64,000 nucleotides of DNA from a virus: positions 1-64,000 of IMG/VR virus record IMGVR_UViG_3300032285_001268; one strand, written 5' to 3'. Made by a program: the position numbers and the translations under genes. The stretch's first letter is position 1. The number at the start of each line of letters is the position of its first letter. Positions 25,991-45,093 of the stretch are shown piece by piece. The notes under the pieces are model-generated. The model was not told the origin of the DNA, did no database searches, and saw only the letters and a program-made list of their open reading frames with translations.

Positions 25991-26326
25991 TAGGCCCCGC
26001 TGTTAGTGTTATAGGATATAGTCATCTTTGGGTCGGGGAACTAATTGACTGTCTATGAGATGGGCAAATGACAGTCGATCTTCCCTTATATAGAATCTAG
26101 TAGGACCTGCTCGCCCTGCACTGACCCACTCTGCACACAGCCATAATTGTTCTTTAGTTGACTCATCCGCCCATGAGTCGTACGCTCTTATATACATAGG
26201 TTCGCTCCCGATATACACTAGTATATAGCTCAAACTGTGAGTATACTAGGCCCCGCTGTAGGCCTAGAGATAGGGCAGAGTTTAGAGGAGGTCCTAGCCT
26301 AGTGTGTGACTAGTAGGCCCCGCTGT
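25991..26326 (+). repeat. three copies of TAGGCCCCGCTGT
   Basis: Exact 13-mers at 25991, 26247 and 26314; related copies at 28646 and 34997. Confidence 0.8.
26009..26233 (-). CDS. hypothetical protein
   Basis: ORF track (TTG start). Confidence 0.4.
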   Translation of the reverse strand: MSYILVYIGSEPMYIRAYDSWADESTKEQLWLCAEWVSAGRAGPTRFYIREDRLSFAHLIDSQLVPRPKDDYIL

Positions 26327-27053: not shown

Positions 27054-27147
27054 ATTATACTGCCAAAATTCATATGTGTCAATTCACTTTCAAAACGTCT
27101 GTGTTCTATCTGCCACAGTTGACACTTGTATAGATCCCTAGTATAAT
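27054..27147. promoter_or_regulatory. divergent pair of perfect sigma70 promoters
   Basis: Minus: TTGACA(27082-27077)-17-TATAAT(27059-27054); plus: TTGACA(27119)-17-TATAAT(27142). Confidence 0.85.
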
Positions 27148-27171
27148 AGTGGCTAGTAAGGAGGAGCGCAG

Positions 27172-27327
27172 ATGACTGAAGCAGACTATCAAAAACTAGA
27201 AGCCTTGGCTACCCTAGAGGATGCCATTGCCCGTATCTATAACATTGAAGGCGATCGTTGGCAGATGGCCTATGATACCCTGGAAGCTGTCCTGGGTAAT
27301 CTAGCCATAGAGCGGCCCCGTGGTTGA
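27172..27327 (+). CDS. small early hypothetical protein (51 aa)
   Basis: Found by hand: GGAGCG RBS, MTEADYQKLEAL..., stop TGA overlaps the next -35. Confidence 0.65.
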   Translation: MTEADYQKLEALATLEDAIARIYNIEGDRWQMAYDTLEAVLGNLAIERPRG

Positions 27328-27383
27328 CAGGATCGCTGATCCCGTGTATACTAGAGGCTAGTTAATTAATAAGGAGCGAACTT

Positions 27384-28091
27384 ATGTTTAAATTACTATC
27401 AACAGCAAACCCTAAGATCCAAAAGGGTACCAAGATGGGCTATCTCAGCTTCATCCTGCATCTTGCTCCAGCGGACTTGTCGGGTAAGGAGACTTGCCCC
27501 AAGCGGACAGCAGGTTGTACAGCGGCCTGCCTAAATACAGCAGGGCGTGGTGGCATGTTTAAACGGGGTGAGACGACCAATGCTATCCAGAAGGCACGTA
27601 TACGCAAGACTGAGTATTTCTTCCGCGATCGTGATGCTTTCATGCTGGATTTGGCCTACGACATACAAAAGGCCATTCGTTTTGCGGCCAAGCAGGGTTT
27701 GACGCCCGTGTTCCGCTTGAATGGTACTAGTGACTTATCCTGGGAGAAGTACGAAGTACCCGTGTTCTGCACTCGTAACATCTTTGAATTGTTCCCTACA
27801 GTACAGTTCTACGACTATACCAAAGTACTTGGACGCAAGGTTGCTGACATTCCTAACTATCACCTAACGTTCAGCAAGGCAGATGGCAACGATAGCGATG
27901 TGGCTGAAGCACTACTACAGGGCATGAGCGTGGTGGCAGTCTACGACCAAATCCCAGAGGGTGTACCCAGTGCAGACGAAACTGATCTGCGCTTCCTAGA
28001 CCCTAAGGGCATCATGTTAGGGCTTAAGGCCAAGGGCCGTGCTAAGAAGGACTACAGCGGATTCGTGATCCGTATCAAGGAGGCAGCATGA
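27384..28091 (+). CDS. GP88-like phage protein (Cys-rich, radical-SAM-like fold inferred)
   Basis: CPKRTAGCTAACL, RLNGTSDLSWE, FYDYTK, YHLTFS, DLRFLDP. Confidence 0.7.
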   Translation: MFKLLSTANPKIQKGTKMGYLSFILHLAPADLSGKETCPKRTAGCTAACLNTAGRGGMFKRGETTNAIQKARIRKTEYFFRDRDAFMLDLAYDIQKAIRFAAKQGLTPVFRLNGTSDLSWEKYEVPVFCTRNIFELFPTVQFYDYTKVLGRKVADIPNYHLTFSKADGNDSDVAEALLQGMSVVAVYDQIPEGVPSADETDLRFLDPKGIMLGLKAKGRAKKDYSGFVIRIKEAA

Positions 28092-28324
28092 CACGTACAG
28101 AGATAGACAATAGTCTACAGTGGGCGGGCACTGCCTCGCTCATGACCATGTATGTGATCATGAGCTTCTTTCCCGAACTACACCCCTGGAACCTAGTGGC
28201 TGGTTGCCTGGGCGGAGTACTGTATTTCGCTTGGACTCTACGTGTGGCAAATAAGCCACAGATGATAGTCAACGCCATGGGTATAACCATTACCCTACTA
28301 GGCTTATACAAGGCCTGGGGTTGA
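28088..28324 (+). CDS. small membrane protein
   Basis: Three hydrophobic helices. Confidence 0.6.
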   Translation: MTRTEIDNSLQWAGTASLMTMYVIMSFFPELHPWNLVAGCLGGVLYFAWTLRVANKPQMIVNAMGITITLLGLYKAWG

Positions 28325-28374
28325 CTAGAACCAGCTTTGAGCATACAATATACACTTACTAACAAGGAGCGGAT

Positions 28375-28638
28375 ATGAACATATCAACCATTGAGCAGTA
28401 TGTAGAGCAAAAAAATGAATGGCGTAAGATGTTTAACCAAAAAGTGTTAAGCCTGCTCAACGCCGCGGATCGTCAGACCATTGCTTTCAGCATTGACGCA
28501 GACCTTAGCCCAGAGAACCTTACCTGCGATGGCGAACTGCCTCGCTCACAGGTGCAGGCTCGTTACAAGATGCTGACCCGTGCGGCACAGGAGTTGGCCA
28601 GCATTGATCCCAATGTGGTATTCTACGAGTTCAATTAA
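28375..28638 (+). CDS. early hypothetical protein
   Basis: Promoter plus GGAGCG RBS; DLSPENLTCDGE. Confidence 0.7.
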   Translation: MNISTIEQYVEQKNEWRKMFNQKVLSLLNAADRQTIAFSIDADLSPENLTCDGELPRSQVQARYKMLTRAAQELASIDPNVVFYEFN

Positions 28639-28724
28639 CCAGGCGTGGCCCCGCTGTTAAGCAAGGTTGACGGCGGTGGCTTTTGGTTGTATACTATAGG
28701 CTAGACAGTTAGACAAAGGAGCGA

Positions 28725-28991
28725 ATGATGTACACCGTAGAACTTTATAAACGAGATGCCCGTAAGAAGTCGGGCGAGCGTCTGTATAGTAAGACAGACT
28801 ATGACACGGATAACCTCAGCATGTTAGAGCACACGGTCAAGCATACCTATCGTGCCAGCCAGGGATTCCGCTATGAGATCCACGAGACCTATGTTAAGAA
28901 GCATAACCTAATGGGTGGGGGCGAGTTCACAGAACGCTATGACACTCCCCACTACTGTTCACCAGCATCAGAATCTTATTGGAGCATGTAA
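28725..28991 (+). CDS. early hypothetical protein
   Basis: Promoter plus GGAGCGAAT RBS. Confidence 0.7.
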   Translation: MMYTVELYKRDARKKSGERLYSKTDYDTDNLSMLEHTVKHTYRASQGFRYEIHETYVKKHNLMGGGEFTERYDTPHYCSPASESYWSM

Positions 28992-28992
28992 T

Positions 28993-29280
28993 ATGGATAT
29001 CAAACAAGTAAACTCAGCTATCATGTTTGGTGATTGGACGGACGTAGAGCTCCGTAGCATGATCGATGCGGTCAAATGGAACCGTAGCCGATTGTCAGAC
29101 CGTACCAAGGCTGCGATCTGTGTAGGCGACAATGTAGAGTTCCTGTCCACTAAGACCGGGCGCTTGACCCGTGGCTTTGTAACCAAGAAGGCCATCAAGT
29201 ATGTCACAGTTGACACGGGCATGGGCTTGTGGAAGGTGCCAGCCAGCATGCTCACAGTGGTTGATAAAGAGCTGGCCTAG
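28993..29280 (+). CDS. early hypothetical protein (SH3-like C-terminus)
   Basis: ATG 28993 after GGAG; VGDNVEF...GFVTK...VTVD. Confidence 0.6.
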   Translation: MDIKQVNSAIMFGDWTDVELRSMIDAVKWNRSRLSDRTKAAICVGDNVEFLSTKTGRLTRGFVTKKAIKYVTVDTGMGLWKVPASMLTVVDKELA

Positions 29281-29338
29281 TGGTTGACAGGGCACCCAAA
29301 GCCCTGTATAATTATGGCTTACGTGATAGGAGCGAACT

Positions 29339-29536
29339 ATGGCAAGAGTGGACGGGCAAGTGGTCAACATCGGGGACTGGGTCAGCTTCAAGAGCGACTA
29401 TGAGCAGTGTGGCAAAATTGTCAAAATCAACGGCGATCGGTTGACCCTATTCAGAGACAATGAGGGCTTTGGGGGCGACTACATTGGGGGTGAAAACTAC
29501 ACCATTGAGTTGGCCAGCGATTGTTGGATTGAATAG
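29339..29536 (+). CDS. early hypothetical protein
   Basis: Promoter plus GGAGCGAAC RBS. Confidence 0.7.
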   Translation: MARVDGQVVNIGDWVSFKSDYEQCGKIVKINGDRLTLFRDNEGFGGDYIGGENYTIELASDCWIE

Positions 29537-29598
29537 GTTGACAGGTCCGGCCCAAACTAGTATAATATAGACATACAGTAAACGATTAGGAGCGAACT

Positions 29599-29943
29599 AT
29601 GAAATTACATATCACTACGCAATACATGGAGAACTACGGTGCCCACGATTGGGACGGTACTGGTGAGTGCCCTCAGTACTGGAAGTTCAAGGGTGGCGAG
29701 GACTACTTCTACCCATTGGGTTCAGCAGGCCGCTCAGCAGAGGCCATCGAGGAGTTGGTACACCACTTCCGTAAGGACATCGAGTGGGACGACATCGGTA
29801 GCCGTCAGTATATCGTAGGCTACGGTGTAGTGGCTGACGACTTCATGACTCCGTTTGAGAAGAGCCAGTTGGAGTACGAAGGTAGCATTACCTACCCTGC
29901 ACGGGTCCTTACAATCGAAGAAGATGTTTACTACGGAGCCTGA
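29599..29943 (+). CDS. early hypothetical protein
   Basis: Promoter plus GGAGCGAAC RBS. Confidence 0.7.
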   Translation: MKLHITTQYMENYGAHDWDGTGECPQYWKFKGGEDYFYPLGSAGRSAEAIEELVHHFRKDIEWDDIGSRQYIVGYGVVADDFMTPFEKSQLEYEGSITYPARVLTIEEDVYYGA

Positions 29944-29944
29944 T

Positions 29945-30169
29945 ATGATTACGATGGAAACTAGACAGAACTACGATCAGCGTCACGGCGGCCCATTTGA
30001 TCGTGGATCCGCTGACTCGTGGTATGGCCGTCCTAGAGACCCACACTTCTATACAGGCGACACTGGCACTAGCCAACGGGTAACTGAGCTTACACCCGCT
30101 GAGGTACAGGCCTACTTGGCGGGCTATCAGTGGAACGAGCAGTTCGGCGGTAAGAAGGATTACGATTAA
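29945..30169 (+). CDS. early hypothetical protein
   Basis: ATG 29945 after GGAG; HGGPFDRGSADSWYGR. Confidence 0.6.
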   Translation: MITMETRQNYDQRHGGPFDRGSADSWYGRPRDPHFYTGDTGTSQRVTELTPAEVQAYLAGYQWNEQFGGKKDYD

Positions 30170-30285
30170 GCTCTAGTCCCCAGCCACTGGGCCCTGCAAC
30201 TCGCCTGGGTTCCTCGCTGGGGCTTTTTCACGATCAGCCTATAGAACCGACAGGTACCCTCGACGTCCACCCCCCTCTGTTCGAC
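30170..30285 (-). ncRNA. candidate small RNA, copy B (paralogue of 26940-27048)
   Basis: Own minus-strand promoter at 30292-30320; 27/33 identity to copy A core; no RBS-led ORF; ends approximate. Confidence 0.5.
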
Positions 30286-30291
30286 TATCAT

Positions 30292-30320
30292 AGTATACGA
30301 TCTTGGGCCCAAAGTGTCAA
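30292..30320 (-). promoter_or_regulatory. antisense sigma70-type promoter inside the early array
   Basis: TTGACA(30320-30315)-17-TATACT(30297-30292). Confidence 0.8.
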
Positions 30321-30421
30321 CCCCAGGGGCAGAGGTGTGGCTAAAATACAACATCATTTTGGCTTGACATTTTGGCTAGTGTGCGCTATAATAAGTTTTT
30401 TACAGCAAACAGGAGCCTACA

Positions 30422-30586
30422 ATGCAATATTTTACTGTGTATCTGCGCTACGATAACGTAGAAGATTTGTGTGCTGTTAATGCTACTAGCGCAGAGGAAG
30501 CTATTGCTAAAGCGCAAGCATACTACAATGCACACGCAGAATTTTTAGACACTACTGTAACAGTTTATAAAGCAGTAGCAAGTTGA
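30422..30586 (+). CDS. small early hypothetical protein (54 aa)
   Basis: Found by hand: promoter, AGGAG, MQYFTVYLRYDNVEDL...; stop overlaps the next -35. Confidence 0.65.
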   Translation: MQYFTVYLRYDNVEDLCAVNATSAEEAIAKAQAYYNAHAEFLDTTVTVYKAVAS

Positions 30587-30637
30587 CATTTTGGACTAAG
30601 TGCAGTATAATTAACACTTACACACACAGGAGCACAC

Positions 30638-30862
30638 ATGTTTACAAATTGCATAGCCCGCGCTAAGTTAAACTACAACAAAAAATTAAAAACATATAAA
30701 CTGCTAGTAGCATTTATTAATAACGGAGACAGCATTACGCAACGCAATGCAAGTTTTATTAGCGGAGATTTGTGCGCAGAAACTATACAAAAAGACTTAG
30801 TGCGTGTGCTACAAACAGCACAGCAAACTCTGCGCACTAACAACATACAATTACTAGACTAA
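30638..30862 (+). CDS. early hypothetical protein
   Basis: Promoter plus AGGAG. Confidence 0.65.
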   Translation: MFTNCIARAKLNYNKKLKTYKLLVAFINNGDSITQRNASFISGDLCAETIQKDLVRVLQTAQQTLRTNNIQLLD

Positions 30863-30937
30863 ACTAGTAAACTAATACATAGCGCATTTGACTTTTTGGG
30901 CTAAGTGCGCTATAATTAGTTTTTTAAGGAGCGCAAA

Positions 30938-31186
30938 ATGGGACAGTACGCAAACACAGTTAACGCATACGCAGAAGACGAAGCACGAGCACGAGTTTAC
31001 AAAACGCAAAGACGTTTGCAAAGTTGGGGACAAACAAGTTACATGTTAAATGTAACTACTAACAAGTTCCGCAACGACATAGAAAAAAAAGCAGTTAAAT
31101 TAATTGCTAAGATGGAACTTGAAAAACTTGCGCAAATGCAAAAAGAGATTGCACAGTTAAAAGCAAAACATAGCATTACAGACTAA
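30938..31186 (+). CDS. early hypothetical protein
   Basis: Promoter plus AAGGAGCG. Confidence 0.65.
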   Translation: MGQYANTVNAYAEDEARARVYKTQRRLQSWGQTSYMLNVTTNKFRNDIEKKAVKLIAKMELEKLAQMQKEIAQLKAKHSITD

Positions 31187-31260
31187 AGGGTTAATACATA
31201 GCGCACTTGACATTTTGGACTAAGTGCGCTATAATTAGTTTTTTAGCAGTAAGGAGCAGT

Positions 31261-31530
31261 ATGTTGTTTAACACAAAGCAAATACGTGCATTAGCACGTA
31301 ATGTCAGTAACGTAAGCGCAAGTTATACGGACAGGACAAATAAAAAAGACAAAACAAGCAAAAGACGTACAGTAGTATTTTGTTTTAGCAATGCACAGGA
31401 TGCGGACACTTTAGCAAACTACTTGCGAGCTACTTGTGCAAACGAAGTAACACAGACTTGTGTTGCTAGAGATTACATAACACGCACATGGGGCGGAAGT
31501 TATGTACGTGTAAAAGCAGATTTAGCATAA
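31261..31530 (+). CDS. early hypothetical protein
   Basis: ATG 31261 after AAGGAG, downstream of promoter 31207. Confidence 0.65.
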   Translation: MLFNTKQIRALARNVSNVSASYTDRTNKKDKTSKRRTVVFCFSNAQDADTLANYLRATCANEVTQTCVARDYITRTWGGSYVRVKADLA

Positions 31531-31539
31531 GGAGTAAAC

Positions 31540-31701
31540 ATGCAGACATTTGTATACAAAAAAACACAAACACATTATTTGCACATAGATGCAGAAACGC
31601 AAGAGGAAGCAGACGCTATTGCAGACACAGTTGACATATATGCGGACAATGTATATGCAACGGAACTAGACGGTTGGGAATTAACAGATGGAGAAGTATA
31701 A
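31540..31701 (+). CDS. small acidic early protein (53 aa)
   Basis: Found by hand: AAGGAG, MQTFVYKKTQTHYLHIDAETQEEADAIAD... Confidence 0.6.
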   Translation: MQTFVYKKTQTHYLHIDAETQEEADAIADTVDIYADNVYATELDGWELTDGEV

Positions 31702-31877
31702 TGACAATACAATACGTAGATGCAAAGGCGGAGATTTTTAAATTACTTGCACAAGTGGAGACACTATTGCTAGAAGCAACTTGCGAAGGCGAGCAAATAG
31801 CGGGCACACGATGGGGTGACGAGATGTTTAACACACATGCGGAACTAGTGCAAATGGTTGACTACTACATAGACTAA
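31701..31877 (+). CDS. small early hypothetical protein
   Basis: TAATG coupling to the previous ORF. Confidence 0.6.
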   Translation: MTIQYVDAKAEIFKLLAQVETLLLEATCEGEQIAGTRWGDEMFNTHAELVQMVDYYID

Positions 31878-31886
31878 GGAGCGATT

Positions 31887-32054
31887 ATGACTAAGCTATA
31901 CCAAGTCACTTACACACTAACAGTGACAGAGGAAGTAGAAGCAGATAGCAAAGCAGACGCTGAGCAGGCGTTTAGCGAACTGTTTAGCGATGCTAACGAC
32001 TTGACCTGCTTGGGCAAGTATAAAGTTAAATGCTTGGGCAAAGCAGACGATTGA
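31887..32054 (+). CDS. small early hypothetical protein (55 aa)
   Basis: Found by hand: AAGGAGCGAT, MTKLYQVTYTLTVTEEVEADSKADAE...; stop overlaps the next -35. Confidence 0.65.
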   Translation: MTKLYQVTYTLTVTEEVEADSKADAEQAFSELFSDANDLTCLGKYKVKCLGKADD

Positions 32055-32101
32055 CATTTTGAGCAAAGTATAGTATAATTGTTTTTTAAGGAGCGAAACT
32101 T

Positions 32102-32458
32102 ATGCAAGCAACACAGTTTAAAGTTAGCAAAAAGCTAACACTAGTAGGCGTTACACAAGAAGACGACACTACTTGTACAGAGTACAAGTGCAAAGTAAAA
32201 GTGCAACTAGCAGGCGACAGTATTTGGGACTGTAATTTAAAAACAGTTACAATTAAAGAGATACACATTGCAGAGACAGACTGGGGCGATGGCGACACTA
32301 ACATACACATTGCAGTTGTACACACAGGCGGTGACGACAGCTGGCGCATATACACAGACAGCGGATTTGAGGCTGCTGTTAGCGACTTGCTAGGGACAGA
32401 CGTTAGTTTTACAGAGCAGGGCATGCAAGACGACGGCTACGCGAGTATGGAGTTGTAA
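32102..32458 (+). CDS. early hypothetical protein
   Basis: Promoter plus GGAGCGAA. Confidence 0.7.
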   Translation: MQATQFKVSKKLTLVGVTQEDDTTCTEYKCKVKVQLAGDSIWDCNLKTVTIKEIHIAETDWGDGDTNIHIAVVHTGGDDSWRIYTDSGFEAAVSDLLGTDVSFTEQGMQDDGYASMEL

Positions 32459-32526
32459 TACATAGCGCACTTGACTTTTTGGGTTAAGTGCGCTATAATT
32501 AACACTTACACACAGCAGGAGCGAAT

Positions 32527-32853
32527 ATGTTTAATGCAAAAGATTTAGGCAAGCAGTTTATTAAGTTAGTGCAAGCTAAAGACACAGACTTAGTAGAAGA
32601 TATTGTTGACTACGACGGCGAGGATACTTACTTGCTAGACTGTTATGTAGACGACGGCGAAGCTACAGACTATGCTAGCATAGACGAGTTAATTGCTAAA
32701 GGCATTGACGGAATTGAAACTGTAGATACTGTAACAGTAATGGGTAGCGCAAGCGGCGACACACGCTGTTACAGCAATACTGTTACAGCAATAGTACTAG
32801 ACGATGGTACTAAGTGGATGGATGCGGCATACTACGATTTAATTTTTGCTTAA
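32527..32853 (+). CDS. acidic early hypothetical protein
   Basis: Promoter plus GGAGCGAAT. Confidence 0.7.
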   Translation: MFNAKDLGKQFIKLVQAKDTDLVEDIVDYDGEDTYLLDCYVDDGEATDYASIDELIAKGIDGIETVDTVTVMGSASGDTRCYSNTVTAIVLDDGTKWMDAAYYDLIFA

Positions 32854-32862
32854 GGAGACTGT

Positions 32863-33051
32863 ATGAGCAACATGAGCAAAGCAATAGCATTGCATAAGGC
32901 AGTGCAGATGTTAGAGGAAGTAGACGCACTAGTGCAAAAAACACTAGGGGCTAGTGACGACTGTTACGATGTGCATTGTGCGCTGGAGGACTTGCAGGAT
33001 ACACTTGCAGGTTTTGCAGAGCAGTTAGAGGAAATGCAAATAACAGAGTAA
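32863..33051 (+). CDS. small acidic early protein
   Basis: AAGGAG RBS. Confidence 0.6.
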   Translation: MSNMSKAIALHKAVQMLEEVDALVQKTLGASDDCYDVHCALEDLQDTLAGFAEQLEEMQITE

Positions 33052-33132
33052 AGTGTAGGGCTTTTGGGCAAGCTGGTTGACAGTTTGCCCAAATCGCAGT
33101 ATACTATAGGCTAAGTTAACAAGGAGCGAACA

Positions 33133-33435
33133 ATGTTAAACATCAGCAAAATCGTAAAGGTCTACAACGGCAAAGTAGGTTGCATGTGCGGGTGTGGCGG
33201 CAAGTACAGCTACACAGCTGACGGGGCTACAAACTATGGCCCAGGCTATGACGTCTCCGACATGATTAACGAGCGTAGTGTACGCATTATTACAAAAAAG
33301 ATCCTCAGCAATCCTCTTGTCAAGTTTGAAGACAATTATGCTTATGTAGAGGACCGTGCCCGTAACAAGATGCAAATGGTTGTGTTCAAAGAGCCACAAG
33401 AGGTCTACAGCCCATTTGACACTTGTAACAGCTGA
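33133..33435 (+). CDS. early hypothetical protein
   Basis: Promoter plus GGAGCGAAC; GCMCGCGG. Confidence 0.7.
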   Translation: MLNISKIVKVYNGKVGCMCGCGGKYSYTADGATNYGPGYDVSDMINERSVRIITKKILSNPLVKFEDNYAYVEDRARNKMQMVVFKEPQEVYSPFDTCNS

Positions 33436-33473
33436 CAGTATAATTAAAACTTAAACACAGCAAGGAGCGAACC

Positions 33474-33719
33474 ATGCAGGTTAAAGAGCTAATTGAAGAA
33501 CTCAAGTACATGGACCCAGATGCCGAAGTACACTTCGCCTATAACTATGGCGATCACTGGCGCACTGAAGTGGCCCCAAAGGTCAGTCGGGTGCAGTCGG
33601 GTGCAGTGGAGTTTAGTGACTACCACCGCATGGACAAGGTAGCTGAAGAGGACGAGTGCTGGGACGAAGATACTGGCGATTGGAAAGAAGACGTCCGCAG
33701 GGTTGTGATTATTGATTAA
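33474..33719 (+). CDS. early hypothetical protein
   Basis: Promoter plus GGAGCGAAC; VKELIEELKYMDPDAEV start common in small phage proteins. Confidence 0.7.
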   Translation: MQVKELIEELKYMDPDAEVHFAYNYGDHWRTEVAPKVSRVQSGAVEFSDYHRMDKVAEEDECWDEDTGDWKEDVRRVVIID

Positions 33720-33785
33720 CCCGTAGAACTGAAGGGGATTTGACAAGAGTCTCCTTTGGTGCTATAATTGAGTTAAGTTAGAAAT

Positions 33786-33961
33786 TAGGGGTTACCTACA
33801 CCGTTAGGCCCTTGGAGAGGTGGAAGCGTTCCGACGGGGACCTAGTATCCAGGGCAAGAAGGCAGACCTTCGGGCGAAGCTGGCGGGTAGAGTAGGCTGT
33901 AATGACGAAGGCAACTGACGCCCTGGAGACGGTCCTAGGCAGTTAGACCGGAGTTCCCCTA
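33786..33961 (+). ncRNA. candidate structured non-coding RNA (about 176 nt)
   Basis: Dedicated promoter at 33740-33768, no RBS/ORF; closing stem TAGGGG/CCCCTA, nested GGACC/GGTCC and TCCAGGGC/GCCCTGGA, UUCG loop. Confidence 0.6.
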
Positions 33962-34023
33962 GTTGACAACACTATCATTTGGTTGTATAATACATTTTTC
34001 AACAGTACTTAAAGGAGCGAACG

Positions 34024-34515
34024 ATGGGTACACGAAGCATGATTGCTATTCAAAATCCACATAGCAAACAAATCCGCGCAGTCTACTGCCACTGGGATGG
34101 CTACTTGGAGCACAACGGCGCTATCTTGCAGAAGCACTATGCCGCAAGCCCTAAAGTCAACAACCTTATTGCCTTAGGCGACTTGTCTAGCCTGCGCCCT
34201 GAGATTGGTGTGCAACACGCATTCAGCTCGCTTGATGTACCCAAGCAAGAGCAAGAGGCTTACGATAAAGAGCACGGCAACAGTTGCACGTTCTACGGAC
34301 GTGACAGAGGCGAGAAGGACGTGGGCTTTAAGGTGTTTGACACGCTGGCTAAGGCTTGCGATCACTACACTTGGAGCGACTACTACTACTGCTTCAAGTA
34401 CACTAAGGCCAGCGACTACACAGTTGGCGAGTGGCACTACAAGAAGAACGGCGAGCGTTGGAAGAAGCTGGCTCCTGCTATTGCTAAACTTGATCCAAAG
34501 GAGTGTGCAGAATGA
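34024..34515 (+). CDS. early hypothetical protein
   Basis: Promoter plus GGAGCGAAC; MGTRSMIAI...VYCHWDGY. Confidence 0.7.
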   Translation: MGTRSMIAIQNPHSKQIRAVYCHWDGYLEHNGAILQKHYAASPKVNNLIALGDLSSLRPEIGVQHAFSSLDVPKQEQEAYDKEHGNSCTFYGRDRGEKDVGFKVFDTLAKACDHYTWSDYYYCFKYTKASDYTVGEWHYKKNGERWKKLAPAIAKLDPKECAE

Positions 34516-34727
34516 AAAAGGTAATTGTGCGCACAGAACTATATCAGGAACTTGAGGTTCCTGATAGCTGGGATAGGTATGATGTATACGATTTCCTAGC
34601 CGAGAACGAGAGCTTCCGTGAGGCTTTCCAAGGTGTAAGTAACCAAGATCAAACAGCCCGCATCCTAGACTTGGGTGTGGTTAATGAAACAGTAACAGAG
34701 ATGGGAGAAGAAGCATATGACGACTAA
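34512..34727 (+). CDS. small acidic protein
   Basis: ATG 34512 overlaps the previous stop. Confidence 0.55.
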   Translation: MKKVIVRTELYQELEVPDSWDRYDVYDFLAENESFREAFQGVSNQDQTARILDLGVVNETVTEMGEEAYDD

Positions 34728-34896
34728 GGCCGGATATTATCGCAAGAAGGCTATGAGTGACAGCAGGTTTGCCACACTCTATGAGGACCCTACCTACGAG
34801 TTGCCCGAGGACAAAGAGTTTGACGGCCCGGGATTTATTGATGTGACAGGCTGGACAGCAGAAGAAGTGCGCCGCCTGGGTCACGCAGACGAATAA
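34717..34896 (+). CDS. small hypothetical protein (59 aa)
   Basis: Found by hand: GGAG upstream, MTTKAGYYRKKAMSDSRFATLYEDP... Confidence 0.55.
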   Translation: MTTKAGYYRKKAMSDSRFATLYEDPTYELPEDKEFDGPGFIDVTGWTAEEVRRLGHADE

Positions 34897-34980
34897 CTAG
34901 TTCGCTCCTAGTTGCCCTTGAGGCCGGCACGACCCCCTCCGAGATGGGGGTCACTTTACAGCTAGACTGTGGCTTTTTTG
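34895..34980 (+). ncRNA. 3'-UTR hairpin element carrying anti-GGAGCGAA loop
   Basis: AACTAG-TTCGCTC-CTAGTT hairpin, then GACCCCC/GGGGGTC hairpin and T-tract. Confidence 0.55.
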
Positions 34981-35067
34981 CCACACTACCAGACCAGACC
35001 CCGCTGTAGCGCGGTTGACGCCCAAGCCAAAATCCTTTATAATTACTACATAATGAAGGAGCGGGCA

Positions 35068-35208
35068 ATGAAGATCACTATCAAAATACCAAACAAAACT
35101 AGGGCACACCTAGTTCTATTTTGCAAGGACACACCCTTCAAGCAGAAGCGTGTAGAGAGCAAGATTAAATATAAACGTCAACCTAAGCACAAGGGGAAAG
35201 AGCTATGA
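35068..35208 (+). CDS. small basic protein (46 aa)
   Basis: Promoter, AAGGAGCG, K/R-rich HLVLFCKDTPFKQKRVESKIKYKRQPKHK. Confidence 0.6.
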   Translation: MKITIKIPNKTRAHLVLFCKDTPFKQKRVESKIKYKRQPKHKGKEL

Positions 35209-35453
35209 AGGGCCTAATCACCAACCAATGGGACAGGGATAACCTTAACTTCCTGCTCAATACCAAAGACAAAGATCTAAAGGATTGGCATGCACAGGCA
35301 GACGCAGACGATCTAGCCTATGCTCAGGAACTCTTGGCCGCCTACAGCCTAGAGCTGAAACTTCAGGCTGAAGAGCTCCGTATTGAGTGCGAAATGGATC
35401 TAAAGGGCGACTTTAGCCAAGCATTAGCCGTGATTGACAAGATCAAGTTTTGA
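35205..35453 (+). CDS. hypothetical protein
   Basis: ATGA coupling. Confidence 0.6.
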   Translation: MKGLITNQWDRDNLNFLLNTKDKDLKDWHAQADADDLAYAQELLAAYSLELKLQAEELRIECEMDLKGDFSQALAVIDKIKF

Positions 35454-35490
35454 TACTATAATATACACTTAAACAACAAAGGAGCGAACT

Positions 35491-35637
35491 TTGAAGACAA
35501 TGACACAGAAACTAGAGCGTGATCGCTTAAATCGGTTAAAGCGTGAGCGTAAAGCCAATCGTCAGTTTGTGCTAGGTGCAGTGATGCTGGCAACTATCTT
35601 TGTAACCCCCTTGGCCGTTGCGGCCTTACTTTCTTAA
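35491..35637 (+). CDS. small membrane peptide (48 aa, TTG start)
   Basis: Found by hand: promoter, GGAGCGAAC, basic N-half and hydrophobic C-half. Confidence 0.55.
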   Translation: MKTMTQKLERDRLNRLKRERKANRQFVLGAVMLATIFVTPLAVAALLS

Positions 35638-35652
35638 TCATAGGAGCGAACT

Positions 35653-36240
35653 ATGCCTAATTGGTGCAACAACTATCTCGAATTAACTCACGATGATCCA
35701 GCAATGATCACTCGTGCCCGTAAGGCCTTTGCAGACGGACGACTGCTGGACGAATTTGTGCCAGTGCCAGAGAGCCTACACATCGTAGCAGGTCGAGTAG
35801 GTGACGACAACGATCCCAAGCAGATTGAGCTTGAGGCACAGGAAAAGGCCAACCTTGAGACACATGGCTACGCCACTTGGTATGACTACTGCGTCAACGA
35901 GTGGGGCACCAAGTGGGATGTAGGTGGTGATGACTACAGCCCTGCAGATGAAAAAGACCCTAATCATACTCGTATGAGTTTTGATAGTGCCTGGGCACCC
36001 CCTGTGCCTGCTATGGCCAAGTTCCAGGACTTGGGCTTCCGAGTCAAGTTGATCTACTGGGAGTCGGGCATGTGCTTCGCAGGCCTGTTTGACGAGAACG
36101 GTGATGACTTCTATGAACTTGGCGGTATGACTGCTGATCAAGTGGCTGAAGAGATCAACCCAGAGATCGACGAGTGCATGTGCATCAGCGAAAGTATGCG
36201 TGAATGGGAAGAAGAAAACGCTGAAGAGGAAGAAGAATAA
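35653..36240 (+). CDS. DUF1281/YubB-like ferredoxin-fold protein
   Basis: MPNWCNN, NEWGTKWD, FDSAWAPP, YWESGMCFAG. Confidence 0.7.
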   Translation: MPNWCNNYLELTHDDPAMITRARKAFADGRLLDEFVPVPESLHIVAGRVGDDNDPKQIELEAQEKANLETHGYATWYDYCVNEWGTKWDVGGDDYSPADEKDPNHTRMSFDSAWAPPVPAMAKFQDLGFRVKLIYWESGMCFAGLFDENGDDFYELGGMTADQVAEEINPEIDECMCISESMREWEEENAEEEEE

Positions 36241-36301
36241 CGGTTGACTGCCTTACCAAAAGGCAGTACAATTAGAATTAGTAAAACAACAAGGTACAGT
36301 A

Positions 36302-36448
36302 ATGAAAACCAACAAAGAAAAGAACTTAGAACATGATGCAAGGATGCAGGCCAAGGTTAGACCAAAGCCTGTAGAGTATAATTGGGAACCATTGGATGCA
36401 GTTGTAAAGCAATGGCGCCAAAGGAGTTATCAGAATGAGCAGGCTTGA
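36302..36448 (+). CDS. small hypothetical protein (48 aa)
   Basis: Found by hand downstream of promoter 36244. Confidence 0.45.
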   Translation: MKTNKEKNLEHDARMQAKVRPKPVEYNWEPLDAVVKQWRQRSYQNEQA

Positions 36449-36716
36449 ATTCTATGCTCGTCCGTTAGTTGCCTTTGATGCACACCTAAAAGAACATCGT
36501 CAGATCTACTATCAGTTTGTCAAAACGATGAGTTGGGGTGCTAGTCCATATAGGTTTATCTGCCCAGAAGATCACGGTGGCGATTTGGTTACCATGATCC
36601 AAAGACAGATCAACGACTACTACATCCACAAAGAATTTGGCGATCGACCACCGAAACCTGAGCCTTTGGTTCGCCAAAAAAGAAAGAAAACGGTTGACAA
36701 GGGCTCAAAAAAGTAA
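36435..36716 (+). CDS. hypothetical protein
   Basis: AAGGAG RBS; ORF track. Confidence 0.6.
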   Translation: MSRLEFYARPLVAFDAHLKEHRQIYYQFVKTMSWGASPYRFICPEDHGGDLVTMIQRQINDYYIHKEFGDRPPKPEPLVRQKRKKTVDKGSKK

Positions 36717-36778
36717 TATAATTTGAACATGCTAAGAAATTGGCATTAATTTTAACACACACAGAAAGAGGTAACAAA

Positions 36779-37144
36779 ATGGCTACAGATAAAACATTTA
36801 ATGTATTTGGTGTTTCTAAACTCAATGGCGAGTACAAAGTTCGTTTCGCGAATGACGTGATGCGTATCAAGGTATTGGCCAAACATGGTCATGAAGATAT
36901 CACTCTTGTTGACTTGGAGAAGTCAGTGAGCAAGTATGAAGGTATCAAGGCTATTGCCACTATGCCAGAGTTTGCCAATGCGGCTGCTCAGAGTGCGATC
37001 GCTGAATACTTGGAAGAAAAAGCACCTAAGGCTAAGGTCTCTAAGCCTGTGGCAAAAGCCGCGAAGACTCCGGTAGCGAAGACTACCAAAGCGCCTGCGA
37101 AAGCAGTTCAGAAAGTTACTGAGAACGAAGACGCTCCTTTCTAA
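36779..37144 (+). CDS. protein with histone-H1-like K/A/P-rich tail
   Basis: ATG 36779 after AGAGG; KAPKAKVSKPVAKAAKTPVAKTTKAPAK. Confidence 0.6.
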   Translation: MATDKTFNVFGVSKLNGEYKVRFANDVMRIKVLAKHGHEDITLVDLEKSVSKYEGIKAIATMPEFANAAAQSAIAEYLEEKAPKAKVSKPVAKAAKTPVAKTTKAPAKAVQKVTENEDAPF

Positions 37145-37147
37145 TCT

Positions 37148-37330
37148 ATGTTCATTCAGTACGAAGTCTGGGGCACACTCAACGGGCATGAAGAGCTCCT
37201 TGAGTGTGTAGCAACCCTAAAAGAAGCAGAAGAGTTGGCAGAAGAAGAAAGGTTCTTTGCTGATGAGATTTGGATCCTAGAGGACACGGACGGCGACCTG
37301 AAAGAAGTTAAGCGTTACCAGGGCCTATAG
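37148..37330 (+). CDS. small acidic protein; stop codon lies inside the tRNA
   Basis: ORF track. Confidence 0.55.
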   Translation: MFIQYEVWGTLNGHEELLECVATLKEAEELAEEERFFADEIWILEDTDGDLKEVKRYQGL

Positions 37331-37397
37331 CTCAGTTGGTTAGAGCAGAGGACTCATAATCCTTTGGTCCCTGGTTCGAGTCCAGGTGGGCCCACCA
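37321..37397 (+). tRNA. tRNA with CAT anticodon, probably tRNA-Ile2 (lysidine type)
   Basis: Acceptor GGGCCTA/TGGGCCC, D-arm TAGCTCAGTTGGTTAGAGC, anticodon arm GAGGA-CTCATAA-TCCTT, T-loop GGTTCGAGTCC, encoded CCA; C4-G69 and C5-G68 favour Ile2 over elongator Met. Confidence 0.9.
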
Positions 37398-37400
37398 CTC

Positions 37401-37430
37401 AAAGGTGTTGTAGAAATACAACACCTTTTC
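37401..37430 (+). terminator. hairpin after the tRNA
   Basis: AAAGGTGTTGTA-GAAA-TACAACACCTTT followed by TCTCTT. Confidence 0.6.
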
Positions 37431-37484
37431 TCTTGACATTTTGGCTAGGCCGTGCTATACTATAGGCTAAGTTAACAAGGAGCA

Positions 37485-38965
37485 GTGATGGGTTACAGAG
37501 TTCTTAACACCGTAGACACGATGCGTGACAATTATGGAGCACGTAAAGGCCTAGAAGGTCCTTACAATTTCAACGGCAGAGTGCTTTACTATGATCCTAA
37601 GGAAGGTAAGTATTACGATCCCAGCACAGACTTCTACGTGAGTCATGACGAATATTTTCGGTTGACAGGCCTCATCTAAACCTGTATAATTATACACATA
37701 CACAGCAAGGAGCGAACCATGCAAGTACACTTTATCGACACAGGAACACAGCAAGACTATGGCTTCAAAGAAGTAGAAGTCCACAGCTTCAAAATGGATC
37801 ATGCTGATGCACCCTACGCCATCGTTAGCAACCCATTCTTTCCAGGAGACAGCCTACGGGCCGAGTATAACTTTTACAACGGTAGCCTGCAATGGACGGT
37901 TGACGTCAGTTGATTTTGGCAGTATAATTAACATATTAACAAGGAGCGAACCATGTACGATATAGTCCAAAACCCAATTCCATTCAATGGATTCTTTTAC
38001 ACACCAGAATCATTTGCCCAACTGCAAGAGCGCATCGAACAGTTGCCAGCAAAGGAACGAGCACTTGTCTACACATTCGTAACACAGGCTATGAATCTGT
38101 GCTATCGAGAAGTAGAAGACAAGATCTTAAGCCGTGAAATCTTTGCACAATAAGGAGCAGTTATGACTACAGCATTTGAAGCAGTTATCTACGCACTCTA
38201 CTACACATGGCCCATGTGGGCTTTCCTGGCCTTGCTGAGTCTAGCCCTGTTCGTAGAAGAAGGCATCAAAGCCTACAGCCTGCGCAAGATGGTTGACAAC
38301 CCCACGCTTTGGTAATATAATTAAGACTTAAACAGCAACAAGGAGCGAACCATGAAGCTAAACGAAACCCGCACCGTCCCATATGGCACCATCCAGTATG
38401 TAGAGGACGAGGACTTTGGCAAGTGCTATCTAGTGCGCCACAACTTCATCAAACGCGAGATCTTCGCTGACACAGTCAAAGAAGCCAAGCAAGAGCTGGA
38501 AGAACTGCAGAAGGAAATGTCAGAGCTGAACTCTGCTATCTCTAAGCTTCAACGCTATGGCTACAAGGTCTACAAAGAAGTTGACAGCCTGTACGCTTGA
38601 GCATATAATTAACACTTACTTAAACAACATTGGAGCGAACAATGATTACAGCAGAACAAATCCAAGCAGGCAAGACTCTAGCAGAAGCGGCTGGTCGTGC
38701 AGAGTACGCCAAATGGGGCGGTGACCGTGGTGCTTGTGGCTTTGCTTGGGTAGAGGTCTACGTGGACCGTACTAACAGCAAACAGGCCAAAGAGCTGATC
38801 AAGGCAGGCTTCCGCAAGGACTACAAACCAAAATGCTTGAGCATGTGGGATCCAGCAGGCTTGCCCGTGCAGAACATCGACATCAAAGAAGCAGGCGCTT
38901 ATGCCTATGCCAACTACCTTACAGCACTGGGCTTGCGGGCCTATGCGGGTAGCAGACTAGACTAA
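37485..38965 (+). other. six small early ORFs, most with own promoter and GGAGC(GAA) RBS
   Basis: 37485-37679, 37719-37913, 37953-38153, 38163-38315 (found by hand, hydrophobic), 38352-38600, 38642-38965. Confidence 0.7.
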
Positions 38966-39038
38966 CCAAAACGTTAGGGCACATGCCCTAACTGTAGTAT
39001 AATTAATTTATTAACAGCGTAACAAAGGAGCGTAACAA

Positions 39039-39920
39039 ATGGTAGGTAAAGTCGTAACTAGTAAGATGCTAATGGCACTACAGCAAGATACCAAAAGCCT
39101 GGCCCAAGAGCCAGTTAAGAAAGACATCAGCACAGAGACTGATGAGCAGATCCTCAACCGTCTGCGTGATCGCTTTGAGATCTTAGATGACATGACCCGT
39201 GCAGTCAAGAAGGGCGATGTACGTGCTATGATCGTCACAGGCCCTCCAGGTGTGGGCAAGAGCTTTGGCGTTGAGAAAGTACTCAGCAAGCACGATGTGT
39301 TCGCTAACGTAGCAGACGACAAGAAGCTGAAGAAGTACGAAGTGGTCAAGGGTGCGATGAGCGCCATTGGCCTGTACTCTAAACTCTACGAATACTCAGA
39401 TAAGAAGTCAATCCTAGTATTCGACGACTGTGATAGCGTATTGCTTGATGACCTTAGCTTGAACATCTTGAAAGCCGCTCTGGATACCAGCAAGCGCCGT
39501 ATGATCCATTGGAACACAGACTCTAGGCTCTTGCGTTCAGAGGGTGTGCCCAACTCATTCGAGTTCAAGGGTGGTGCTATCTTTATTACCAACATCAAGT
39601 TCGATCACGTCAAGAGCAAGAAGCTACAGGATCACTTGGAAGCACTAGAGTCACGTTGCCACTACCTAGACTTGACTATCGATACAGAGCGTGAGAAGGT
39701 CCTGCGCATCAAGCAGGTAGTTACCGAGCACGGTATGTTAGATGACTATGAGCTGTCAGATGAAGCCAAGCTGGATGTGGTTGCGTTCGTAGATGCCAAC
39801 AAGCATCGCATGCGTGAGCTGAGCTTGCGTACAGTACTTAAGGTAGCAGACCTTAGAGCTAGCTTCCCGGACAAGTGGACTAGCGTAGCAGAGGTTACTT
39901 GTATGCGTGGCAGCCGCTAG
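39039..39920 (+). CDS. AAA+ family ATPase
   Basis: Walker A GPPGVGKS, Walker B ILVFDDCD, sensor IFITN, ALESRC arginine finger. Confidence 0.85.
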   Translation: MVGKVVTSKMLMALQQDTKSLAQEPVKKDISTETDEQILNRLRDRFEILDDMTRAVKKGDVRAMIVTGPPGVGKSFGVEKVLSKHDVFANVADDKKLKKYEVVKGAMSAIGLYSKLYEYSDKKSILVFDDCDSVLLDDLSLNILKAALDTSKRRMIHWNTDSRLLRSEGVPNSFEFKGGAIFITNIKFDHVKSKKLQDHLEALESRCHYLDLTIDTEREKVLRIKQVVTEHGMLDDYELSDEAKLDVVAFVDANKHRMRELSLRTVLKVADLRASFPDKWTSVAEVTCMRGSR

Positions 39921-40090
39921 GGCTCAGACCCTACATGCCCGTGTAGAGTATACAGAGCAAGCCGGCCCAGACTGGCAGACTCTGTGCAGTGAGAACAACT
40001 GACGTGATTCGCTCCCACTAGGTTGTTCGGTAGTGTGGTCCCTGACACCGTAATTCCGATTCGCTCCCGGTTGTGTCAGGGATTTTTTTT
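39918..40090 (+). ncRNA. candidate sRNA with two identical AUUCGCUCC loops, ending in an intrinsic terminator
   Basis: GTG-ATTCGCTCC-CAC (40004-40018) and CCG-ATTCGCTCC-CGG (40056-40070); outer stems GAACAAC/GTTGTTC and CCCTGACAC/GTGTCAGGG; T8 tract 40083-40090. Confidence 0.7.
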
Positions 40091-40283
40091 GGCTGGGGTA
40101 ACCGGGGTGGTGGGGCCAATAGAGGGGTGGGAGGCTTATATGTTAGCAACTACTAACTTAGCTAGCTAGCGCATGGGTACCGAGCTTTTTTCCACCATCT
40201 AAAAGTTTAAGTACTTCTTTATAATTTTTTACGCGGCAATTTTTTTAGGCTGCAGGACCCATTTCGGGCTATATACTATTACT

Positions 40284-40466
40284 ATGAACAATCAAGACTA
40301 TAACCAAACTGTGCTTATACGTGGTCGTCTATATCGCTATGATCCGGACTTTGATGCCTATTATCGTGTACAGGAGCAGGAAGGTCCCGTGAGTCGTTGG
40401 GCTTGGATTGCCCTCTGTGCTCTGCTGGCCATCGTAGCTTTCTGCATAGAATTTCGTCCCCTATAA
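40284..40466 (+). CDS. small protein with C-terminal TM segment
   Basis: ORF track. Confidence 0.55.
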   Translation: MNNQDYNQTVLIRGRLYRYDPDFDAYYRVQEQEGPVSRWAWIALCALLAIVAFCIEFRPL

Positions 40467-40472
40467 GCTACT

Positions 40473-40697
40473 GTGCGCGAATACTACATACTCACGCTAG
40501 ATCCACGTGCCAGAGAAGTTATCACATGGATCGTTGATCACAATATCACCTGTGATGTACACCTTAATCGCACACGTTTTTGGGTTCCAGAAGGAGTATT
40601 ATCTACAGAGTTTCATCTACGCTTCAGTGACTGTTGTCCCCCTGTAGATCCCGCTGATGATCTACTCATTGGGCGCACACGCTACGGCCCATTCTAA
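40473..40697 (+). CDS. hypothetical protein
   Basis: ORF track. Confidence 0.55.
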   Translation: MREYYILTLDPRAREVITWIVDHNITCDVHLNRTRFWVPEGVLSTEFHLRFSDCCPPVDPADDLLIGRTRYGPF

Positions 40698-41047
40698 CCA
40701 GCCAAAAGAAAAGCTCCACGAATAGAGCTTAAGGTTGCGGGCACGACCCGTATAGATGATCAAATTTTTACAACACTATGCGTTTGGTGGATTCTCCAAA
40801 TGGCACATTAGTTTGGTTCTCTTATACATAGTATACCCTCCCCTTGTTGTAATAGTATTTACAGATTACACCTAGATTACCGCGTCAAATGGGCTCGTTT
40901 TGCTCCATTAGATCTTTAACCAAATCAGGCCAATTAGGTAGCCTAGGGCAAAAGAGTATACCCCCAATAGCATCAACGCTAGGGGATATAACCAGTGATT
41001 TTCTACTATTTCTTTCAGTGTCATATGATTATTTACTATATACTAGC

Positions 41048-43677: not shown

Positions 43678-45093
43678 TCAAAGGTCATCGCCTGGCAAGT
43701 TGTTGATCAACTCACGAAGTTTACTGCTCTCCACTGTGGCACGTACCTTGGGTGCTGGTGCACCATCTGTTAGTATTTCACCGGTACTTGGTACGATTGT
43801 TTGACGTTGTTTGATACTGTTGAGTAGACTTGATCCTGCCGATTGGCTGTTGTGACTACCGTACCCATCTTCTTCTGCTAGGTCACTGATGCGTAGACTG
43901 TCAATGTCAAACTCCAGATCAATTTTCTGTCCAACACCACTACTACTACGTGTCTTCATCAGTTGTATTTGATAGCGTCCACGCTCACGCATAGCACGGC
44001 TAGTAAAAATACCAAACACGTTATCTGCTGTTTGGATCTTACTTAATCCGCCTGAAATATGACTGTGGTCAAACTCTACTTCTTCCACAGCACCACGATT
44101 CAACTGTGCGGCTGTGACAAACACACAGTTCTTTTCTACTGCTAGATTACGCAGTTCTTCACTGACATACTTGTCCTTGATAAACAAGTCTGCTGGGCTG
44201 ATTTTCTTGCTGATAGGCATCAACAAGTCCAAGTAGTCAACTAAGAGTACATCGACCTTACGGTCCATCTTAATTTCATATTCTTTCAAATAACTACGGA
44301 GATCATTGGCTGTTTTGCCGCTGGGCATGTATTTGACTTGATAAGTTCCGCTCTTCTTACCAATCATTTTAACTTTCATTTCAACGTCATCAAGATTCTT
44401 AAAAATCTCTTTTGTAGGCATACCAGTTATCATAGCATCCATACGCATTGACACTAGTTCTTCTGAAAGTTCAAGTGTTAGGTACACGACATTTAGCCCT
44501 GCCAGTGCCCAGTTCACACCTAGGTTCGCTAGGAATAGCGATTTACCTGCACCTGATCCGCCTGCGAAAATATTCAATTCGCCTCTGTTCATACCACCGA
44601 ACAATTTGTCGTCTACTGATTTCCAACCTGTAGTAACTTGTCCGTTTTTATCTTTGATCTTCATTAGACGTGCTCTAGGGTCAGCAAAGTAATCTGTACC
44701 CATGTCTTTTTGCAGGCCTACCTGTATGGCCTGTTTGATCTTGTCTTCGACAGGACCGTATTCGCCTTTTTCCAGCAGGTCTGCACTTTCAAGAATTGCA
44801 CGTTCTAGACCTTTGTGTCGAATAAAGTTTTCAAACTCTACCAACAACCAATCGTAGTTCTTTTCTTTTAGATCTTGCGGATATTTGAGATCTACACCCA
44901 TTGCGGCATTGACGATATCATATGTGGGTAGCACATTGTATTCTTCAACGTACTTGTTGACAAACTCTGCACTTTCTTGCAAACGTCTATCAAATAGTGT
45001 GTGGTCAAAAATGCTTTGGCACCGAACAAATGTTGCGGCATCACTGAGCATCATTTCCAAGTATAATTTTTGTATATCGTAACCGTATTCCAT
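43678..45093 (-). CDS. gp41: replicative DNA helicase (DnaB / T4 gp41-like)
   Basis: GGSGAGKS, LTLELSEE, LVDYLDL, AAQLNR, MKTR. Confidence 0.92.
   Translation of the reverse strand: MEYGYDIQKLYLEMMLSDAATFVRCQSIFDHTLFDRRLQESAEFVNKYVEEYNVLPTYDIVNAAMGVDLKYPQDLKEKNYDWLLVEFENFIRHKGLERAILESADLLEKGEYGPVEDKIKQAIQVGLQKDMGTDYFADPRARLMKIKDKNGQVTTGWKSVDDKLFGGMNRGELNIFAGGSGAGKSLFLANLGVNWALAGLNVVYLTLELSEELVSMRMDAMITGMPTKEIFKNLDDVEMKVKMIGKKSGTYQVKYMPSGKTANDLRSYLKEYEIKMDRKVDVLLVDYLDLLMPISKKISPADLFIKDKYVSEELRNLAVEKNCVFVTAAQLNRGAVEEVEFDHSHISGGLSKIQTADNVFGIFTSRAMRERGRYQIQLMKTRSSSGVGQKIDLEFDIDSLRISDLAEEDGYGSHNSQSAGSSLLNSIKQRQTIVPSTGEILTDGAPAPKVRATVESSKLRELINNLPGDDL

Follow-up and report, generated by a model that had tools for sequence, protein, structure and literature searches.

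The stretch of DNA analysed here (64 kb, hereafter the window) constitutes the start of an IMG/VR virus record of 185,262 bp with a CheckV completeness of about 50%, whose source is an uncultured freshwater T4-like giant phage. Between 26 and 40 kb the window carries a plus-strand run of small early genes, the last of which encodes an AAA+ ATPase (Table 1). Fifteen plus-strand genes share an extended Shine-Dalgarno (SD) motif, hereafter the tag, and two hairpins behind the ATPase gene display its complement. The first large tagged gene (27384-28091, plus strand) encodes a GP88-family protein (Pfam, E = 2.6e-37), a family which a 323-kb relative (L172) also encodes in its early block, there beside rIIB, and a tRNA-Met (CAT) gene (37321-37397, plus strand) locates among the tagged genes of the block.

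A promoter scan of the plus strand revealed 15 perfect TTGACA-N17-TATAAT sites and about eight further ones with 11/12 matches, all within 11.5 kb, which amounts on average to about one promoter per small gene and is unusually dense for consensus sites. Almost no terminators were detected between these promoters, and from 38609 to the hairpins no sigma-70 promoter was found on the plus strand in the scan, hence the hairpins are regarded as 3'UTR of the ATPase gene and not as a separate gene. In most other genes of the record the SD sequence is weak or absent, the minus-strand starts at 45093, 47151 and 43629 being examples among many non-early genes without it. Some of these possess a TATAAT-like box just 5-15 nt ahead of the ATG, an arrangement which suggests leaderless or very-short-leader mRNAs for the genes concerned.

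Among cultured phages, the nearest relative of the ATPase was identified by tblastn in Pseudomonas phage PA5oct (47% identity); all isolates were below 60% identity, the group has no cultured member, and megablast of 38000-41000 against cultured phages gave no match. Behind the PA5oct homologue (MK797984.1 248735-249889, L245) no intergenic element was found. This homologue is labelled 'thioredoxin' in GenBank, which is probably a carry-over from the neighbouring nrdC.

Table 1. Positions of the early-block and 3'UTR features within the window
Feature	Position	Strand	Description
Tagged RBS of divergent small gene	26201..26208	-	GGAGCGAAcctATG behind a TATACT box
Consensus sigma-70 promoter array	27119..38609	+	motif scan; upstream of tagged early genes
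15 tagged RBSs	27373..38639	+	GGAGCGAA, each 2-4 nt before the start codon; beginning at 27373, 28718, 29329, 29589, 32090, 32518, 33123, 33464, 34014, 35481, 35643, 37709, 37943, 38342, 38632
Weak third hairpin	34895..34913	+	5 bp, AACUA-GUUCGCUCC-UAGUU; loop copy at 34901; just after a gene stop
AAA+ ATPase, 293 aa, T4 NrdC.10 homologue	39039..39920	+	Pfam AAA_16/AAA; tblastn to T4-like nrdC.10 genes
Proximal 3'UTR	39921..39992	+	MFE fold; two small hairpins, ~39932-39947 and 39952-39985
Hairpin 1	39993..40028	+	outer stem 39993-40000/40021-40028; inner GUG/CAC; loop AUUCGCUCC 40007-40015
Hairpin 2 and intrinsic terminator	40037..40090	+	12-bp outer stem 40037-40048/40071-40082; inner CCG/CGG; loop AUUCGCUCC 40059-40067

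Tagged ribosome-binding sites and complementary hairpin loops

The tag GGAGCGAA consists of the 4-nt SD core GGAG and a lineage-private 4-nt extension, CGAA, and was counted in 19 copies over both strands, as compared to 0.9 expected. A preliminary description of this DNA had proposed 15 ribosome-binding sites (RBSs) complementary to the loops, and exactly 15 were recovered on the plus strand, followed by ATG in all cases except for one TTG. Most of the tagged early genes have a consensus sigma-70 promoter just upstream; with the contexts judged by eye, the spacing between tag and -10 box differs by about a dozen nt among the sites, and since the motif remains fixed near the ATG it was assigned to the ribosome site and not to the promoter. 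The small gene at 26201 diverges from the block and is located on a separate transcript, hence it would be reachable only in trans, and judged from this gene arrangement it argues for trans action. A 17th tagged start was found at position 112730 of the record. The RBS of the ATPase gene itself, GGAGCGUAA, matches the loops imperfectly, over 6 nt. A literature search on the 8-mer returned matches only to primers and rRNA.

Both copies of AUUCGCUCC were placed by RNAfold within 9-nt hairpin loops of the MFE fold, confirming the earlier reading of identical loops on different stems, and the probability of their 8 nt being unpaired was predicted thermodynamically as 0.87-0.94, meaning that the loops are expected to be exposed rather than buried. 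By energy the 178-nt fold is unexceptional (z = -1.2), and as a consequence the significance of the element derives from the comparison with relatives and not from folding energy. A TAGGG/CCCTA hairpin, likewise described beforehand, is missing from the MFE fold due to its overlap with the CUACA hairpin. The proximal 3'UTR, whose length and sequence are highly variable among relatives, is possibly a processing region. The idea that the second stem-loop doubles as terminator agrees with the U8 tail at 40083-40090, directly 3' of hairpin 2, but does not extend to several relatives, in which a separate terminator is located downstream of the second loop hairpin; loop display and termination are hence separable functions. 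U8 tails are typical of Hfq-binding terminators.

The loop complement TTCGCTCC had been thought to occur only three times, always in a hairpin loop. The exact plus-strand count is four: at 26201 the minus-strand RBS appears in reverse complement, and the other three copies are the two ATPase 3'UTR loops and the weak hairpin further upstream. For the latter (AACUA-G UUCGCUCC-UAGUU) a 5-bp hairpin can indeed be drawn, but it is disfavoured in the thermodynamic fold; a G+C-rich hairpin (~34931-34952) follows next. Some relatives have similar CUA-G...UAG copies upstream of the ATPase stop, at a distance of 4.7-7 kb.

The predicted 8-bp duplex of loop and RBS amounts to -13.9 kcal/mol, as compared to -7.6 for the RBS with the generic 16S 3' tail. 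The predicted cost of opening the tagged RBSs (mean 3.2 kcal/mol) was counted against the pairing reading. RNAcofold gave noisy energies of -9.1 for early genes, -5.1 for controls and -6.0 for scrambled loops, which were left out of the argument as cofolding cannot model the kissing of a loop with a strand, and a G-U strand test did not separate plus- from minus-strand RNA. Two structural readings of the loop were dropped by eye, namely the T-loop (the position equivalent to A58 is a C) and the UUCG tetraloop (the UUCG is not closed by C-G).

Just past the terminator a G-rich tract is found (40091-40140 in the window; 100-260 nt after the ATPase stop in relatives). In 27/78 relatives a tract G[GT][CG]GGG[GA] is followed within 1-4 nt by TAT[AT]NA, e.g., GGGGTCGGGGTATATA, a combination which may be a promoter specific to the phage. 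The record that contains the window lacks the strict pattern.

Conservation and co-variation among uncultured relatives

Close relatives of the window (lineage A) were sampled as 80 fetched loci with ATPases of 74-92% identity, and TTCGCTCC was found within ~155 nt of the ATPase stop in 80/80 loci (two copies in 70, one in nine, three in one). The 123 unique 64-nt hairpin contexts comprise 109 distinct outer stems around an invariant G-AUUCGCUCC-C, and in 118 of them the outer helix spans 6 bp or more. For hairpin 1, compensatory changes were seen among relatives in the outer as well as the inner stem. Closing triplets differ in a compensatory manner between relatives (CCG/CGG, GUG/CAC, CUG/CAG, GCG/CGC, CUA/UAG, UGG/CCA), and RNAalifold of eight relatives yielded a two-hairpin consensus with double compensatory changes at 12/22 pairs. 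At the RBS side, GGAGCGAA is the commonest pre-ATG motif in close relatives, accounting for 335 of the GGAG-plus-extension sites, next to the variants GGAGCGAC, GGAGCACA and GGAGCAGA. A few phages of this clade, in which GGAGCACA or GGAGCAGA outnumber GGAGCGAA while the UUCGCUCC loop is kept, were counted against the pairing reading. Conservation within these hairpins (e.g., window 40049-40058) extends beyond the seed to the closing G-C pair, a 5' A and recurrent purine-rich bulges (UAAR-Y-CCG, CCAACG...CGGCAA), and these conserved flanks hint that something further constrains the sequence, for instance a protein or tertiary contact.

Co-variation between RBS extension and loop in relatives had been named beforehand as the decisive check, and such co-variation was found: five lineages possess different tag/anti-tag pairs, with the anti-tag locus in the same place in all of them, within the 3'UTR behind the homologous ATPase gene. 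Lineages beyond the first were reached from representatives of more distant ATPase clusters, and tag discovery was run without use of the loop sequences; a 7-mer matrix over whole 3'UTRs on crude start calls proved too noisy and was given up in favour of tag discovery and of the own-TIR test described below. In lineage A (the window, L007-L086 and others) the pair is GGAGCGAA / UUCGCUCC. Lineage B carries GGAGGAGCAA / UUGCUCCUCC (L087-L089) or GAGGAGCAAG / CUUGCUCCUC (L093, L094), and lineage C (L097, L098, L107, L109) carries GGAGAGAG / CUCUCUCC with a hairpin displaying a CU-rich loop; CU-rich CCUCC repeats are confined to lineages B and C among the relatives. Lineage D (L136 and L176-L231, ~50 non-redundant) combines GAGGGCA with UGCCCUC, whereby two to six GCCCUC motifs reside in each 3'UTR, those inspected being located in hairpin loops. 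Its seventh tag base varies in the RBSs in the order A (185), T (53), G (9) and C (3), and the loop partners of this base follow the same order (A 73, T 38, G 18, C 0). In its member L136, 11 tagged starts cluster within 7.2 kb of a 268-kb record. Lineage E carries AGGAGUAACU / AGUUACUCCU (L104), AAGGAGCAA / UUGCUCCUU (L110) or a pairing of 11 bp with one G-U (L100, L102), and here the anti-tag is an unstructured stretch within the first 15 nt after the ATPase stop codon, which it overlaps or abuts, and 9-11 nt of it are complementary to the ATPase's own RBS (L100-L110). This unstructured anti-RBS may represent the element in its simplest and perhaps ancestral state.

The own-TIR test searched for perfect complements of at least 7 nt between the translation-initiation region (TIR) of the ATPase gene and the 3'UTR. 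Such a match to the own 3'UTR was obtained for 81, 67, 71, 71 and 100% of the loci in lineages A to E, as compared to 8-17% with the 3'UTRs of other lineages. In lineages B, C and E the tag is limited to the ATPase gene and a few neighbours (two to four genes near the ATPase), and the ancestral role may hence have been autoregulation of one operon and not control of a regulon. Judged from this distribution, the tagging of a whole regulon in lineages A and D may have expanded from the ancestral autoregulatory contact. In the stretches fetched from six more distant relatives (identity up to 63%; L160, L163, L166, L170, L172, L174) neither tag nor loop was found, and their RBSs are heterogeneous. 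For P0133, IMG/VR held no relative.

A putative anti-Shine-Dalgarno RNA and competing explanations

Complementarity of loops and tags, loops predicted to be exposed, co-variation within the stems, co-variation of tag and loop between lineages and the syntenic position of the element were all directly observed. The reading preferred by us, to which a probability of roughly 0.65 is assigned on sequence evidence, assumes that a 3'UTR-borne anti-SD RNA pairs with the tagged early ribosome sites and occludes them, thus providing feedback or a timed shut-off. Herein, the final ~100 nt of the early ATPase transcript would fold into the two hairpins, whose 9-nt loops, each closed by the invariant G-C pair, would serve as anti-SD seeds able to form 8 bp with the tag of 15 plus-strand early genes and of one divergent gene. 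As almost no terminators were detected among ~23 strong promoters, the majority of early transcripts would be expected to extend to 40090 and to include the loops, so that the amount of loops should rise in step with early transcription. Either intact mRNAs or stable fragments of their 3' ends would present the loops, and their pairing would occlude the tagged SDs in cis, by contact of the 5' and 3' ends, and probably also in trans, so that early protein synthesis would be subject to negative feedback or be shut off in a timed manner. We infer from these data that the RNA exists and pairs in vivo, and equally infer the sign of the regulation and its operation in cis or trans; a separate small RNA, trans action and repression or an early-to-middle switch, as envisaged in the preliminary description, would belong to the same proposal.

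The strongest rival, which is nevertheless considered unlikely, is autoregulation in cis only, meaning that the 3'UTR pairs exclusively with ribosome sites of its own mRNA, chiefly that of the ATPase, as is the case for icaR, the tag being a by-product of the spread of a promoter-leader-RBS cassette by duplication or recombination, like the T4 PeSL cassettes. This idea gains from the invariable attachment of the element to the ATPase gene, from lineages B, C and E, where the ATPase's own TIR provides the best complement (9-11 nt) and the tag is confined to so few genes, and from the leaders upstream of the tag, which are also alike among early genes. It accounts less well for the window, where the ATPase RBS pairs imperfectly and 15 other genes perfectly, L136 showing the same, nor does it readily explain the presence of up to six loops per 3'UTR, loop variants that follow the tag variants, the tagged gene on the opposite strand, and a tag-to-ATG distance that is fixed despite variable leaders.

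Alternatively, G-AUUCGCUCC-C might be a protein-binding hairpin or terminator module, read by a protein of phage or host origin (RNA chaperones, nucleases and the ATPase itself were considered), with complementarity to the RBSs being secondary. The conserved flanks of the seed described above are in line with such a contact, but exact loop/tag complementarity in five lineages with unrelated loops would be left unexplained, and the anti-tag of lineage E offers no hairpin loop to be read, rendering this explanation improbable. Least probable, with only a very small chance of being correct, is a minus-strand RNA or a DNA form, in which hairpins displaying GGAGCGAA act as decoy for 30S subunits or an RBS-binding factor, or in which the 8-mer is a DNA-binding site used either way round: the hairpins are nearly equally stable on the minus strand, but plus-strand transcription is indicated by the U8 tail, by the promoter array and by the orientation of the genes, relatives possess a plus-strand promoter and gene directly downstream, the tag is spaced to the ATG and not to the -10 box, and the orientation is strictly split into forward at starts and reverse in hairpins.

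Known regulators and biological meaning

The preliminary description knew of no phage system of such design, a statement which survived literature searches, as no published phage example of such an element was found and the close analogues are bacterial, i.e., the cuckoo RNAs, OppZ/CarZ and the icaR 3'UTR. Rfam 15, searched with 39800-40300 at gathering score and at E<=10, yielded nothing credible, including no cuckoo-family or C4 match, and on the window only tRNA-Met; the element belongs to no Rfam family. The c4 antisense RNA of P1/P7 and the CI RNA of P4 are processed from the transcript that they control and pair with the ribosome-binding region by exposed loops. They serve the immunity of temperate elements and have two different loops directed at a single target. 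The element described here differs from C4 by its identical loops and its many targets.

Its architecture is nearest to the cuckoo/CcsR sRNAs and its logic nearest to OppZ/CarZ and the icaR 3'UTR. The alphaproteobacterial cuckoo/CcsR sRNAs (RSs0680, alpha-r14) consist of two to four hairpins whose stems vary and which share a single anti-SD-like loop motif, CCUCCUCCC, and are co-transcribed with the upstream gene (PMC4615179). Adjacent variable-stem hairpins before a terminator are found here as well, the window having two and its relatives between one and three; however, CCUCCUCCC is a general anti-SD, whereas AUUCGCUCC matches a private, lineage-specific SD extension, and the element is phage-encoded. 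OppZ and CarZ of Vibrio cholerae are 3'UTR-derived autoregulatory sRNAs with a seed before the operon terminator that is complementary to TIRs of the own operon, resulting in negative feedback (PMC7398697). Here, too, a seed in the 3'UTR precedes the terminator and is the complement of a TIR in its own operon, yet with many targets, repeated identical loop seeds and a tag common to a whole temporal class. The Vibrio type is also characterized by release through RNase E, by dependence on Hfq and by Rho-dependent termination. In the icaR mRNA of Staphylococcus aureus, a C-rich 3'UTR motif pairs with the own SD and blocks initiation (PMC3868564); there, a single gene is concerned and RNase III cleaves the duplex, in contrast to an 8-bp duplex, multiple loops and multiple tagged genes in the present case, at least one of them on another transcript.

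Within the T4-like phages themselves, T4 shuts off early mRNAs by RegB together with S1, cutting early SDs at GG*AGRAYARAA (PMC3014915). Common to both cases are a T4-like phage, early genes with a shared extended SD motif and a dedicated inactivating factor, the latter as proposed here. The effector in T4 is a nuclease together with ribosomal protein S1, whereas an RNA is proposed for the element, and the tag GGAGCGAA(C) departs from RAYARAA. The RegB Pfam model found no match in the 185-kb record (~50% complete), nor in any control.

In its widest form the proposal reads that a large uncultured aquatic group of T4-like giant phages employs lineage-specific early SD tags and a co-evolving multi-loop anti-tag RNA at the 3' end of the early transcripts, which acts in trans to turn off the early class as a whole while sparing host and late phage messages, a generalization for which the odds appear about even. 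If true, T4 RegB would have a counterpart made of RNA, and the tags and anti-tags would form a natural orthogonal set. Several natural and mutually distinct tag/anti-tag pairs exist already, and the co-variation of an mRNA motif with a distant RNA loop can be read straight from metagenomes. If the pairing is functional, these pairs would be ready-made candidate parts for orthogonal translation control and the element would add a phage example to the 3'UTR-derived feedback RNAs. For the biology of the phages, functional pairing would mean that a virus-encoded RNA controls an entire temporal gene class via a private ribosome-site tag, and would thereby provide a mechanism of early shut-off for a very abundant, uncultured phage group.
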